IMG/VR virus record: IMGVR_UViG_2675903504_000001
Reading direction: 5' to 3' (one strand)
Length of the DNA: 5,568 bases
DNA from: a virus
Lineage: Duplodnaviria > Heunggongvirae > Uroviricota > Caudoviricetes
In this document: positions 312 through 5,323 of the stretch, piece by piece
Layout of the letters: every line of letters starts with the position of its first letter
How positions within the stretch are numbered: the first letter of the stretch is position 1
Translations under genes and position numbers: made by a program
Notes under the pieces: model-generated
What the model was told of the DNA's origin: nothing
The model's database searches: none
What the model saw: only the letters and a program-made list of their open reading frames with translations

Positions 312-805
312 ACCATAACGTCCGGTTTCTTCTACCCCTGCACCGGACTGGCTGACATGAAGAGCAACCCCGCGTTCAGTTGACGCGTTAATAACCCGGT
401 GTGCATCGTTTTTGATTATTCCCGCACACTCACGCAGAAGGAATTCCCCGTCGGGCTACGGTCATGGTTAATGCGGGAATACGGCGACGATACAGCGCAT
501 GATGTGTCAGGCTTGAATACCTTTATCCGTTAAAAGGGATATCAGTTAAGTTATCCCGTGTAGGGTATAAGCCATTGTCGAGACCACTCATTGAATGGCC
601 TCTGCAATAACCGATGTCTTTCCATCAGTCCGCCACCACAAAGAATCTTTTTTGCCTTAAGGCAGGAGCTTCATCTTTCAGTGGCTGCCAGTGTTATTTC
701 CCCACTTACTGGCTTGGGTTGTTTCGTGGTACTGCCGTTAACTGGTGGCCCAGAATAAATTCCGGTTTCATTATCAAGCCCACCCGTAAATGGGCTTTGT
801 AATGG

Positions 806-1075
806 CTACTTCACTTTTGCTTTTGCTTTTGCTTCCGCTCGCTTACGCCGGCGCTCTTCTTTCCTCTCGGCTTTTGCCATGTCCATGAATGCCTGCATGA
901 TCGAGTTCCGCATCATGTAGCTAACAAAGTGATGATTGACACAGCCGTTGAGGCGCAGCTGCTCGCCAAACTCATCCACCGAGGCCAATGCTTCCATCAT
1001 GCCCTTCTCGCCTTTCATGAACTCTGAGAAGTCGCGCCCCGCTCTGGAGGCGTATTCAATGACACGATCACTCAT
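806..1075 (-). CDS. hypothetical small protein (89 aa) with strongly basic Lys/Arg/Ala-rich C-terminal tail (ERKEERRRKRAEAKAKAKVK)
   Basis: ORF of 89 codons whose ATG (1073-1075) overlaps the TGA of the upstream KilA-N gene in an ATGA arrangement, indicating translational coupling. Stop is TAG at 806-808. No family recognised from sequence. Confidence 0.55.
   Translation of the reverse strand: MSDRVIEYASRAGRDFSEFMKGEKGMMEALASVDEFGEQLRLNGCVNHHFVSYMMRNSIMQAFMDMAKAERKEERRRKRAEAKAKAKVK
814..837. repeat. hexanucleotide tandem repeat (CTTTTG)x3 plus one degenerate unit, in frame within the 3' end of the 806-1075 CDS
   Basis: Plus strand 814-831 reads cttttg cttttg cttttg, followed by cttccg at 832-837. 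On the coding (-) strand this is GCAAAA-type repeats encoding the AKAKAK tail. Confidence 0.5.
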
Positions 1076-1569
1076 CCCGGAAGCCCGGGGATCGTAATCT
1101 GCAGCTGGTTAGCCAGGGAGTTAATCTCAGCGACCAACACTGGCTTCGTATAGCGCCATGCTGCCAGCCCTTGTCCGCAGAAGCTCGCCATGTCTTTCTT
1201 CTGGTCAAACTCATGACATTTCATGTTGAGCTGCGCACTTAAGCTGTTGCGATGCTGAAGTTCTCCGGTGAAGTAGTCATCGAGGACTTTATAGGCCGCG
1301 TACTTGAACCCGGGGTTTAACCAAGCCGCATAATCGTAAGCAACAAACTTCCCGCCATATGTTCCACCGTGTACACCGCGCTCAGTAAAAACCACAGATT
1401 CGTGGTTTTTCTCCAGCTCGGCTAAGAACTCTTTGGTCTGCTTGTTTCGCAGGTAGTGGTAAGGCGATTCAGATTCACTTTTACCACTGGCTTTCCACAT
1501 ATCAGTGAGGCAGATCATGCCATCTTCACCGATACGAATTGGTTGATTGAAGAGGGTTAATGATTTCAT
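1072..1569 (-). CDS. KilA-N domain protein (prophage-encoded, putative DNA-binding/antirepressor-like)
   Basis: 165-aa ORF. The central segment GVHGGTYGGKFVAYDYAAWLNPGF matches the recalled KilA-N signature (GTW-HP-LA...W-SP-F). A plausible SD (AGAGTAGG) lies ~9 nt upstream of the ATG at 1567-1569. Domain call is from memory of the family pattern. Confidence 0.65.
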   Translation of the reverse strand: MKSLTLFNQPIRIGEDGMICLTDMWKASGKSESESPYHYLRNKQTKEFLAELEKNHESVVFTERGVHGGTYGGKFVAYDYAAWLNPGFKYAAYKVLDDYFTGELQHRNSLSAQLNMKCHEFDQKKDMASFCGQGLAAWRYTKPVLVAEINSLANQLQITIPGLPG

Positions 1570-1684
1570 AGCGTGTACCTACTCTTTGAAATGAACCTTT
1601 GCCGCACAGGAAACCAGCCCACCGAGGCTCGCCAGCACTAACTGGTATCCTCAAAGGCCCATTCCAAAGGGGCAGGTTCGGTGT

Positions 1685-1739
1685 AAAAAACATGCGTTGC
1701 GGTACGCATTTATTGCAAAAAGCCCCGCATCGCGAGGCT
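1685..1739 (-). terminator. tandem rho-independent terminators downstream of Rz/Rz1 (on - strand)
   Basis: Hairpin 1721-1739 (agccccgc/atc/gcgaggct) forms an 8-bp stem with one G-U wobble on the - strand RNA (a C-A mismatch on the + strand) and is followed on the - strand by U4-5 (plus 1717-1720). Hairpin 1692-1709 (atgcgt/tgcggt/acgcat) is followed on the - strand by G then U6 (plus 1685-1690). Confidence 0.5.
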
Positions 1740-2759: not shown

Positions 2760-2864
2760 GGATATTTATCAGGATTTATCGGTTTCTGAACCCTGGATAT
2801 GTTTATCTGTCCCGGCCTGTTGAATCAGGCAAGGAATAGTTAAATACAATAGAGAGGATTGTTT

Positions 2865-2954
2865 ATGGACAATAGCACCATTTCTCTACAGGAGTTGCTC
2901 GACTGCATTTCCAAGCTTCGGGATGATGTAAATGCCCTTACTGTCGCATTTTAA
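2865..2954 (+). CDS. candidate small ORF (29 aa, MDNSTISLQELLDCISKLRDDVNALTVAF) on the strand opposite to the lysis genes
   Basis: ATG at 2865 is preceded by a strong SD (agagagga at 2851-2858, 6-nt spacing); stop is TAA at 2952-2954. It lies in an otherwise unexplained 340-bp gap between the DUF1327-like gene and the endolysin gene. No homology recognised and the peptide is not hydrophobic. Below the ORF-track cutoff, so speculative. Confidence 0.2.
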   Translation: MDNSTISLQELLDCISKLRDDVNALTVAF

Positions 2955-3102
2955 TATCTGGCATTCTCAATTCCCAAGGAACAAATGCAACCAACACTGG
3001 CATCGCTCCAGCTTGAATCACTCAACCCCAAATGGTCCCAGCAACAACAAAATTCTTTCAAGTGGCTGGCGGTATTACTGGAAGAAAAATATGCTGGTGA
3101 AA

Positions 3103-3447
3103 TTACCATTTCGGCGGAGTCTTCAGAGAACCAGTAATTCTTCCCGGTAGCTTTCCTTTGTAGGTTATCCACACATTCTGCGCCTCTAAAATTATGGGGC
3201 GCTTTTCCGGCGACAGCTCATCCCCTTCACATAACCCGGCAGCAACATCCAGGAAGACCTGTCTGATGCTCCTTCTGGCTGCTGCCTCATAAAACTCCAG
3301 CGCGGCACCTTCAACACGGTCCAGCGAGATGTCCAGGTCAAAAATTTCACCGTCAAAGCGTTTTTTGTCCCGTAACGCTAAAGTTACCGTAACTTTATTC
3401 TCAAAATTGCGGATCCCTTTCACAATCAGTTCATAGTTTTGAGTCAT
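3103..3447 (-). CDS. DUF1327-like (YdfR-like) prophage protein located between holin and endolysin
   Basis: 114-aa ORF starting 4 nt after the holin stop, with SD-like GGGGAGAG inside the holin 3' end. The holin - DUF1327 - lysozyme - Rz order matches the recalled essQ-ydfR-rrrQ-rzpQ order of the K-12 Qin prophage. Family assignment is by synteny and recalled N-terminal similarity, not verified. Confidence 0.55.
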   Translation of the reverse strand: MTQNYELIVKGIRNFENKVTVTLALRDKKRFDGEIFDLDISLDRVEGAALEFYEAAARRSIRQVFLDVAAGLCEGDELSPEKRPIILEAQNVWITYKGKLPGRITGSLKTPPKW

Positions 3448-3451
3448 TGAA

Positions 3452-3667
3452 TTACTCTCCCCGTGCAGCCTTACGCTTGTCTTCTTTAATCTTGAAATAA
3501 AGGTTTGTCAGGTACGTCAGCATGCCAAATACCAGGCTACCCAGCACTCCAATTGCCGCCCACTGTGAGGGCGTGACTTTATCTAGCAGCTGTAAAAACC
3601 AGTACCCGGCACTACCTGCTGAGGTGCCATAGGCGACACCCGTTGTTAACTTATCCATGGATTTCAT
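3452..3667 (-). CDS. S: class II pinholin, phage 21 S21-like (71 aa) with dual-start motif
   Basis: 71-aa ORF beginning MKSMDK (Met1 and Met4, the S21-71 antiholin / S21-68 holin dual-start arrangement). Two TMDs are present ([19 protein letters not shown] and [23 protein letters not shown]) with a charged C-terminus ([13 protein letters not shown]). Strong SD GAGGTG lies 6 nt upstream of Met1. Near-identity to phage 21 S / K-12 EssQ is recalled from memory. Confidence 0.9.
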
Positions 3668-4240: not shown

Positions 4241-5323
4241 ATGAAAAAATTAACAGTGGCAATTTCTGCTGTAGCTGCATCAGTACTGATGGCGATGTCT
4301 GCTCAGGCAGCTGAAATTTATAATAAAGACAGTAACAAGCTGGATCTGTACGGGAAAGTTAATGCTAAGCACTACTTCTCCTCTAATGATGCAGATGATG
4401 GTGATACTACTTATGCCCGTCTTGGCTTCAAAGGTGAAACCCAAATCAACGATCAACTGACTGGTTTCGGTCAGTGGGAATATGAATTCAAAGGCAACCG
4501 CGCTGAATCTCAAGGTTCCTCCAAAGATAAAACCCGTCTTGCCTTCGCTGGCCTGAAATTCGGTGACTACGGCTCCATCGATTATGGCCGTAACTACGGT
4601 GTAGCATACGATATTGGTGCATGGACCGACGTTCTGCCAGAATTCGGTGGCGATACCTGGACCCAAACAGATGTATTCATGACTGGTCGCACCACAGGTG
4701 TTGCAACTTATCGTAACAACGACTTCTTTGGTCTGGTTGATGGTCTGAACTTTGCTGCTCAGTATCAGGGTAAAAATGACCGCACTGACGTAACTCAAGC
4801 TAATGGTGATGGTTTCGGTTTCTCCACTACTTATGAGTATGAAGGTTTCGGCGTAGGTGCAACCTATGCTAAATCTGACCGCACTAATAATCAGGTTATC
4901 TACGGTAACAACAGCCTGAATGCATCTGGTCAAAATGCTGAAGTATGGGCAGCTGGTCTGAAATATGATGCGAACAACATCTATCTGGCTACCACCTATT
5001 CTGAAACCCAGAACATGACTGTTTTTGGTAATAACCATATTGCCAACAAAGCACAAAACTTCGAAGTAGTTGCACAATATCAGTTCGACTTCGGTCTGCG
5101 TCCGTCCGTTGCTTACCTGCAATCTAAAGGAAAAGACTTGGGTGCGTGGGGTGATCAGGACCTGGTTGAATATATTGATGTAGGTGCAACCTATTACTTC
5201 AACAAAAATATGTCCACTTTTGTTGATTACAAAATCAACCTGATTGATAAGAGCGATTTCACGAAAGCATCTGGCGTTGCTACCGATGATATCGTTGCTG
5301 TAGGTATGGTTTACCAGTTCTAA
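4241..5323 (+). CDS. nmpC: outer-membrane general porin, OmpC/OmpF/PhoE superfamily; prophage-encoded NmpC/Lc (OmpD-like) type
   Basis: 360-aa ORF with signal peptide [23 protein letters not shown] / AEIYNKD. Porin hallmarks throughout: [109 protein letters not shown], and C-terminal aromatic F (VYQF). N-terminus and overall sequence match recalled E. coli NmpC / phage PA-2 Lc. Location between the phage late regulator region and the holin matches the DLP12 quuD-nmpC-essD arrangement. Confidence 0.93.

Follow-up and report, generated by a model that had tools for sequence, protein, structure and literature searches.

The closest described counterparts of the locus considered here are the hkbK and hkbL genes of phage HK620. 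The same two genes lie on the minus strand of a 5,568-nucleotide (nt) stretch of a Caudoviricetes virus (IMG/VR record IMGVR_UViG_2675903504_000001; "the window" below refers to this whole stretch), where a gene for a KilA-N domain protein of 165 amino acids (aa) at 1072-1569 is followed by a gene for an 89-aa protein at 806-1075 and is preceded by a conserved structured leader RNA at 1567-1710. Proteins with 95-100% identity to the two products are encoded by HK620 and likewise by Stx phages 1717 and 2851, ECP1, PhiR49_1 and Salmonella S107/S135; in all of these the ATGA overlap between the genes, the position behind the Rz gene and the leader are as they are here, and nothing substantial sets the window apart save a Cys8-to-Tyr change in the small protein. 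The 1.1-kilobase (kb) region matches 180 phage records, among them HK620 (hkbK/hkbL), ECP1, PhiR49_1 (annotated as 'KilA-N-ORF11CD3'), Stx 1717 and 2851 and many P22-like Salmonella phages, as well as 1571 of 5426 complete E. coli genomes, and the pair itself is found in Stx, P22-like and HK97-like phages. An earlier note on this DNA, made from its letters without database searches, had singled out the pair as a place to look for an undescribed accessory activity. That description does not hold for a pair that has been annotated since HK620 and is very common, and in the literature on hkbK/hkbL and ORF11CD3 no functional study of the pair was found. The pair is a common, already catalogued Bro-network accessory cassette, and it is the leader RNA that is the new observation.

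The only member of this type of cassette with a reported phenotype, and the closest relative that has one, is Rha of P22 (orf201) and phi80, which is reported to be harmful to lytic growth in hosts lacking integration host factor (IHF; PMC4936722). Rha shares with the window's KilA-N protein the slot behind the lysis genes, the C-terminal ORF11CD3 domain, the variant of the leader and a conserved block downstream, but it carries a Phage_pRha domain rather than KilA-N at its N-terminus, and P22 rha has no coupled small gene after it. The gp73 protein of HK97, HK022 and mEp234, found with a small gene beside it, has the KilA-N N-terminus, the slot and the leader RNA family in common with the window, and its small neighbour is 84-96% identical to the window's; it differs in having a P63C C-terminus, a KilA-N domain of only 23% identity and a 2-nt spacer in place of the overlap, and most gp73 relatives have no small gene. 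Because KilA-N, Rha and gp73-type genes share leader, slot and downstream block, they can be regarded as interchangeable members of one regulated cassette.

Other described systems resemble single parts of the locus. BstA has an N-terminal KilA-N-like DNA-binding domain and likewise comes from an enterobacterial prophage (PMC8585504). However, it is a protein of about 307 aa with another C-terminal domain, encoded beside the repressor, expressed in the lysogen and accompanied by a DNA self-immunity element, none of which is seen here; the window's protein has 165 aa and is encoded in the late region, and PADLOC matched no BstA model to it, the match returned being a partial one to PDC-S22. P1 KilA has a KilA-N domain with 29-30% identity over residues 17-127, but also a KilA-C/ANT domain that is absent here, and it lies in a lytic replicon rather than a late operon. 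The lambda N leader is an RNase III-processed hairpin that exerts translational control by sequestering the ribosome-binding site. Leaders of this type use a long hairpin to pair the Shine-Dalgarno region of a dosage-sensitive regulator, as does the one described below, which nonetheless belongs to a different sequence family, contains a covarying alternative helix and has no match in Rfam (1567-1710, E ≤ 1).

The leader RNA

The leader RNA is 144 nt long (1567-1710, minus strand), ends at the ATG of the KilA-N gene (1567-1569) and is identified by a covariance model, by covariation and by its predicted fold. From its 5' end it consists of a short hairpin (1692-1709), followed in the window variant by a U-run to 1685, then the 5' arm of an alternative helix (CACCGA, 1678-1683) and a long irregular hairpin (1577-1677), whose apical loop contains the 3' arm of the alternative helix (UCGGUG, 1620-1625). 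At the base of the long hairpin, ACCUGC...CCUUU pairs with AAAG...GUAGGU, the last six letters of which are the ribosome-binding site (1577-1582). The fold has a minimum free energy of -73.8 kcal/mol over 206 nt (z = -3.4), and the minimum-free-energy structure of the full-length leader is this sequestering hairpin. In related loci the leader occurs as several variants that are very different in sequence and have the same helices; when 17 divergent variants were folded singly, 15 gave the same hairpin with CCUUU:AAAGG as its basal pairing. With its GCGC...GCGC stem the 5' hairpin looks like P22 boxB, an identification that was dropped on reading the sequences against established knowledge, as the loops are unlike the N-binding loop.

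Compensatory changes were found in 11 of 20 pairs when RNAalifold was applied to a plain MAFFT alignment of the leaders. A first covariance model (R1), taken from the RNAalifold consensus, contained 12 pairs only and was not used. The second (R2) was built from 20 leaders from which the window type had been excluded, and it matches 1567-1710 of the window over its full length with 59.5 bits (E about 1e-11), its matches totalling 94 in 89 sources. In the R2 alignment compensatory changes occur in 29 of the 32 pairs, and the proportion of paired cells is 90.7%, as against 71.6% in shuffles; the covariation score is 0.544, compared with 0.219 in shuffles (0 of 500 reach 0.544) and 0.05-0.14 when the partners are slid. 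A conserved pairing of the Shine-Dalgarno region that is supported by covariation, the mark of a cis-acting translational repressor RNA, is thus found in this leader, with CCUUU:AAAGG at the base and compensatory changes in the helices above it.

The alternative helix joins the 6-8 nt just upstream of the anti-Shine-Dalgarno (CACCGA in the window) to the apical loop (UCGGUG). Counts by MAFFT column were abandoned for this helix because its 5' arm shifts by one column between variants, and it was scored instead by a window-based run-length test with shuffled sequences and cross-class pairings as controls. Of 78 distinct sequences, 75 contain a run of 6 or more consecutive pairs, compared with 8.5% of shuffles and 19.6% of cross-class pairings. 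More than 20 different pairs of arms occur, for example CCAAGAG/CUCUUGG, CGAGAG/CUCUCG, CUCAGAA/UUCUGAG and CGUCGAA/UUCGACG. In transcripts truncated after the 3' arm the alternative helix closes the fold in most variants, and in most variants other than that of the window the hairpin enclosed by it pairs the anti-Shine-Dalgarno with a conserved UGAGRA box. As the 5' arm abuts the base of a stem of about 40 base pairs and the 3' arm lies in the loop of that stem, the geometry implies that the two folds should exclude each other. To judge from the sequences, the layout would be that of a two-state translational switch.

The leader family is not confined to the gene pair: it also precedes P22 rha, HK97 gp73, a P22_AR_N + ORF11CD3 gene and three different HNH_3 endonuclease genes. 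Nor does a given variant keep to one type of gene, since the window variant is also found before P22 rha, the HK97 variant also before ORF11CD3-type genes, and a third variant before both KilA-N types and HNH genes. This shuffling of leader variants relative to the following gene argues against protein-specific autoregulation and favours a generic mechanism, be it folding kinetics, a host factor or a nuclease. The common denominator of the genes behind the leader is that they are dosage-sensitive accessory genes. Among them, the HNH_3 homing-endonuclease genes stand right behind leader copies in Dewey (locus L007, 1812-2492), in ECP1 (L032, 3971-4660) and in loci L119 and L162 (about 980-1700); in Dewey the KilA-N gene is separated from the leader by an inserted endonuclease gene and keeps about the last 35 nt of another leader.

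Part of the leader has been encountered as an RNA. A 2026 study detected an 89-nt RNA, 'P22F', in P22-infected cells (PMC13397905), and its sequence is the upper part of the leader hairpin up to the ribosome-binding site. The leader also bears on the annotation of P22 rha (orf201; locus L331, NC_002371), for which RefSeq gives a GTG start at 1576, inside the apical part of the leader; an ATG preceded by a Shine-Dalgarno sequence lies 70 nt downstream, at 1646, and the P22 small-RNA study likewise counts rha from this ATG, downstream of the leader (PMC13397905). The position of the annotated GTG inside the leader suggests that the start should be moved, and the ATG is the likely true start (178 aa).

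These observations can be drawn together in a proposal to which we would give somewhat less than an even chance. The leader would be an undescribed two-state RNA switch, alternating between the sequestering hairpin and a fold or pseudoknot closed by the alternative helix, and would gate KilA-N, Rha, P22-antirepressor-N and HNH genes in the late regions of enterobacterial lambdoid phages; the KilA-N domain would have a dedicated partner in the 89-aa Cys/His protein; and P22F would be a fragment of the leader and not a trans-acting RNA.

The KilA-N protein and its small neighbour

The two coupled genes, of 165 and 89 aa, are present where the earlier note placed them, though on the minus strand, which it had left unstated. 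Its assignment of the KilA-N domain was confirmed by the profile search that it had proposed: in Pfam, KilA-N (PF04383) occupies the N-terminal residues 9-101 (nt 1267-1545) with 57.6 bits against a cut-off of 23.8. The same search revealed a C-terminal ORF11CD3 domain (PF10549) that the note had not included, at residues 109-161 (nt 1087-1245; 50.5 bits, cut-off 25). Phage_pRha (PF09669) was absent from the 165-aa protein, and KilA-C/ANT (PF03374) was matched by neither protein of the pair (E ≤ 0.01). This protein of the Bro network (Iyer, Koonin and Aravind 2002), taken from the list of open reading frames (ORFs), matches PHROG families annotated as anti-repressor or transcriptional regulator and is 100% identical to its counterparts in the active phages ECP1 and PhiR49_1. 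In an AlphaFold2 model with a predicted local distance difference test score (pLDDT) of 84.5, a beta-hairpin and helices at the N-terminus (residues 1-84) are followed by helices of 45 and 25 residues, which form a hairpin and make up the ORF11CD3 part. Comparison of the model with the PDB by Foldseek returned nothing significant, the APSES domain of Mbp1 ranking second with E 0.79, and a PDB sequence search with the protein gave no match. The ORF11CD3 module is also found behind a Phage_pRha domain (in P22 Rha) and behind P22_AR_N (in locus L071), so that the N-terminal domains are swappable. A metagenomic protein, P0133, joins a Phage_pRha N-terminus to the C-terminal two-thirds of the window's KilA-N protein; this natural chimera is a direct example of domain swapping within the cassette type.

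The junction of the two genes (1072-1089, minus strand) consists of a GC hairpin, CCCGG-GCUU-CCGGG (1076-1089), and the ATGA overlap (1072-1075), which reads ccgggATGAgtg. The small gene has no Shine-Dalgarno sequence of its own, and the hairpin directly precedes its ATG. The ATGA coupling reported earlier is a constant feature, the -4 overlap being kept in 104 of 104 ORF11CD3-type pairs. Given that the overlap is kept and the small gene has no Shine-Dalgarno of its own, its translation most likely needs ribosomes that terminate at the KilA-N stop codon.

Co-conservation of the pair, which the earlier note had put forward as a check, was found in one direction. Among 92 loci fetched with the small protein, a KilA-N gene lies directly upstream wherever upstream sequence is available (one locus is cut off upstream), so that in the loci examined the small gene always comes after a KilA-N gene. 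The upstream gene is either of the ORF11CD3 type, with the -4 overlap, or of the P63C type of HK97 gp73, with the 2-nt spacer. Many KilA-N genes, on the other hand, have no small gene. One is found downstream in 98 of 100 ORF11CD3-type genes with more than 90% identity to the window's and in all 6 with 48-50% identity (187-188 aa), but in 0 of 7 with 45-60% identity and in 18 of 67 P63C-type genes, and the 49 P63C-type copies without it include ones 93-99% identical to HK97 gp73. Without the small gene, the second position is either unoccupied or taken by a different gene. The identity of the small protein (63-99%) does not follow that of its neighbour (26-100%).

That the small protein needs a KilA-N neighbour and the KilA-N gene does not need the small one argues against an obligate toxin-antidote pair such as a type II toxin-antitoxin system. 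The KilA-N domain, the one feature common to both types of neighbour, fits an accessory partner that recognises this domain, and from this pattern of occurrence we infer that the 89-aa protein is a KilA-N-specific accessory partner. The other genes seen in the second position encode a family of about 120 aa, which in locus L115 is also joined by an ATGA overlap, and a 57-aa ORF with a basic tail; loci with different second genes are L098, L108-L110, L115, L116, L160 and L165-L172, and L173-L174. No Pfam family matches the products of about 120 or 57 aa.

The small ORF is a real gene, not a chance ORF. Its product matches phrog_875 with E 1.4e-52 and has homologues in 136 clusters at 90% identity, almost all of 83-92 aa; every cluster that bears an organism name is from Enterobacterales, and 310 IMG/VR stretches contain relatives. 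When 1.8 billion representatives were searched exhaustively with a profile, just 21 clusters emerged, which marks the family as a narrow one. Nothing was found for the small protein in Pfam, NCBIfam or PDB sequence searches, and a PADLOC match to QatB was set aside as noise (E 0.017). The earlier note had also raised the possibility that the ORF is a frameshifted fragment of a longer, KilA-C-containing protein. This was rejected, in view of the length of the homologues (83-92 aa) and the absence of a KilA-C/ANT domain. The small protein has no match to the longer PHROG family that the KilA-N protein matches, and the few longer or fused sequences are singletons or of low quality, with frame errors or recombinant ends.

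Structure prediction, another check suggested beforehand, gave a confident AlphaFold2 model of the 89-aa protein, in which three helices form an up-down-up bundle (mean pLDDT 92.5). The acidic or amphipathic body and very basic tail ascribed to it are an accurate description, the basic helical tail being KAERKEERRRKRAEAKAKAKVK. Gly13-Arg-Asp-Phe-Ser17 and Cys45 are invariant in the family, and Cys8, His48 and His49 are nearly so. As the start of helix 1 adjoins the loop between helices 2 and 3 in such a bundle, Cys8, Cys45, His48 and His49 could form a metal site. In the copy studied here residue 8 is Tyr (codon TAC at 1052-1054, minus strand) where relatives have TGC for Cys; in two sets of relatives examined, all 90 and all 76 have Cys at this position, and so does the E. 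coli copy closest to the window, with 1 base different in 1101. If Cys8 is a metal ligand, the change may impair the partner in this copy. The basic tail is encoded by a hexanucleotide repeat, (GCAAAA)x3, at 812-829 (minus strand), and the small proteins of relatives have 85, 87, 89, 91, 93 or 95 aa, one Lys-Ala unit per step, which suggests repeat slippage in the tail.

The cassette and its surroundings

The gene pair and the lysis genes of the lambdoid prophage are all on the minus strand, in late-gene orientation. The latter comprise a P21-type holin gene (3452-3667), a DUF1327 (YdfR-family) gene (3103-3447), a lysozyme gene (2226-2759) and an Rz gene (1771-2244, with its stop codon at 1771-1773) that has an Rz1-like ORF embedded in it. 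Holin and lysozyme genes normally overlap; here they are separated by the DUF1327 gene and about 340 nt without an annotated gene (2760-3102). Just upstream of the lysis genes an OmpC/NmpC-like porin gene (4241-5323) lies on the plus strand, the same arrangement as in DLP12-type prophages and in PhiR49_1, where the gene is annotated OmpD. On the other side, downstream of the late genes, a plus-strand DUF1398 (YbcV-like) ORF (60-311) covers profile positions 48-119 only. It is without its N-terminal third, and the next 250 nt (312-560) are non-coding, which suggests decay in that part of the prophage.

The position past the lysis terminators attributed to the pair in the earlier note is borne out by three successive minus-strand hairpins after Rz. 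A terminator-like hairpin found by consensus scan (1764-1793) overlaps the end of Rz; its stem (1793-1776) is followed by a U-run, AATAATTTTT. An intrinsic terminator then follows the lysis genes at 1717-1740, seen in the minimum-free-energy fold as GAGCCUCGCGAUGCGGGGCUUUUU and composed of GAGCCUCGC-GAU-GCGGGGCUU and then UUUU; counterparts of this hairpin were found in HK97 and P22. The third terminator-like hairpin (1685-1709, stem 1692-1709), AUGCGUACCGCAACGCAU followed by GUUUUUU, doubles as the first helix of the leader RNA, and most relatives are without its U-run.

In HK620, PhiR49_1, an E. coli prophage, HK97, mEp234 and Dewey the place of the pair is between the Rz and terminase genes, in the orientation of the late operon. 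A GIY-YIG nuclease gene occupies the same slot in other genomes, and lambda carries bor in it, a classic moron site. With GIY-YIG or bor in other genomes, the slot is a variable accessory site of which the pair is one already annotated occupant.

The downstream side of the cassette is conserved as well. Just 3' of the stop codon of the small gene a minus-strand hairpin is predicted by folding at 776-797, AAGCCCA-UUUACGGG-UGGGCUU, with no U-run on this strand; about 200 loci conserve the first 38 nt past the stop codon, where the stem shows G-U variation. Beyond it, a non-coding block (570-775, minus strand; fold z = -4.2), homologous to the region after P22 rha, is kept with 85-95% identity in more than 100 loci, whichever gene lies upstream: its counterpart follows rha in P22 and the small gene in HK022. 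The block overlaps the P22 small RNA 'P22G' (PMC13397905).

Expression and possible roles

The description of the pair as an independent unit in the earlier note could not be upheld. No sigma-70-like promoter is found on the coding strand between 500 and 2400, the orientation is always that of the late operon, and the occupant of the slot in P22, rha, is described as a late-operon gene (PMC4936722). The cassette is a separable mosaic module, but it is probably not a separate transcription unit. In lambdoid phages, late transcription is carried out by Q-modified RNA polymerase, which reads through terminators. With no promoter-like site past the terminators, read-through from the late operon is the most likely route of expression.

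The reading that we favour, with a probability of roughly 0.45, is that the pair is a late-operon accessory cassette of lambdoid phages that corresponds to the P22 rha cassette in position and layout. During lytic growth, Q-modified RNA polymerase would pass the terminators and the cassette would be transcribed as a late gene pair. A leader fold that forms early, closed by the alternative helix, would leave the ribosome-binding site free until the more stable long hairpin shuts it, so that little of the protein, or a short burst of it, would be made; an excess would be harmful, as has been reported of Rha from P22 and KilA from P1. Only ribosomes fresh from translating the KilA-N gene would make the 89-aa protein, which would be no antidote but a partner that acts on or together with the KilA-N domain and probably binds zinc and contacts nucleic acid. 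By analogy with other Bro-network proteins, the most plausible target would be host DNA or that of a competing element. In this copy the Cys8-to-Tyr change may impair the partner.

Several points weigh against this account. The R2 alignment was fitted to the model, which inflates pairing, and the alternative fold is defined less sharply in the window-type variant than in the rest; the mutual exclusion of the two folds is argued from geometry and nearest-neighbour energies. All loci were fetched with KilA-N or small-protein queries, which biases the association of the leader with particular genes, and the promoter scan covered sigma-70 consensus sites only. As for the small protein, the case for a zinc site consists of four conserved residues and the helix topology, and high identity of the protein beside two unrelated C-terminal domains would also fit a function that is independent of the neighbour.

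Alternative roles can be weighed against the same evidence. The earlier note likened the pair to a toxin and its antidote, and expression of KilA-N proteins, that of P1 for example, is reported to be lethal to the host; in an effector-immunity arrangement of this kind the KilA-N protein would be toxic to the host and the coupled small protein would neutralise it. The tight coupling of the genes would suit such an arrangement, as would the constant presence of a KilA-N gene with the small one in the loci examined. The one-sided co-occurrence makes it improbable, however: a partner is absent from 49 of 67 P63C-type genes, from all 7 of the ORF11CD3 type with 45-60% identity and from P22 Rha. In addition, the putative antidote would be made after the toxin and no more abundantly, the sigma-70 consensus scan of the coding strand (500-2400) found no autoregulated promoter, and the PADLOC match is a partial one, to the KilA-N core of a candidate family. 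That match, to the candidate PDC-S22 (E 1.2e-8), is weak, but it could equally be counted in favour of a moron that is expressed in the lysogen and shields its host from other phages, whether through abortive infection or through superinfection exclusion. A role in defence is open to KilA-N-like proteins, as BstA demonstrates (PMC8585504), and the cassette is bracketed by hairpins and terminators in the slot that holds bor in lambda. We nevertheless regard this possibility as unlikely, if slightly less so than an antidote, given that the sigma-70 scan of 500-2400 found no promoter-like site, that the leader sequesters the ribosome-binding site, that architecture, size and position are unlike those of BstA, no model of which was matched by PADLOC, and that HNH homing endonuclease genes, which have no part in defence, stand behind the same leader.

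Somewhat better placed than either, though still doubtful, is an antirepressor-like late protein that acts in lytic growth on DNA or repressors of heteroimmune prophages or satellites and whose specificity is tuned by the small protein. ORF11CD3 is common to Rha-type and P22 antirepressor-N-type proteins, the PHROG matches carry anti-repressor and transcriptional-regulator annotations, and a second-gene slot filled by at least three unrelated families is what would be expected of a conflict interface. Against this, the basis of the idea is purely family annotation, and the small protein is highly conserved rather than diversifying. Finally, the cassette of this window might be a decaying remnant of a defective prophage that no longer functions. 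Tyr8 stands where all relatives examined have Cys, the adjacent DUF1398 gene is without its N-terminal third, and the whole window is found in no complete E. coli genome of the collection (the best has 88% coverage and 99.2% identity); but a KilA-N protein that is 100% identical to those of the active phages ECP1 and PhiR49_1, together with an intact leader, an intact overlap and two intact reading frames, makes decay as improbable as an antidote.

By itself the pair adds little, being one more copy of a very common cassette. The Rha phenotype becomes a test for all members of the cassette. To our knowledge there is almost no biochemistry on the KilA-N domain, which is widespread in phages and eukaryotic viruses, and a small protein tied to KilA-N domains offers a testable handle on it. 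The leader, for its part, is a well-supported candidate for a new cis-regulatory RNA, and it would explain how phages keep potentially self-harming genes within a strongly transcribed late operon.

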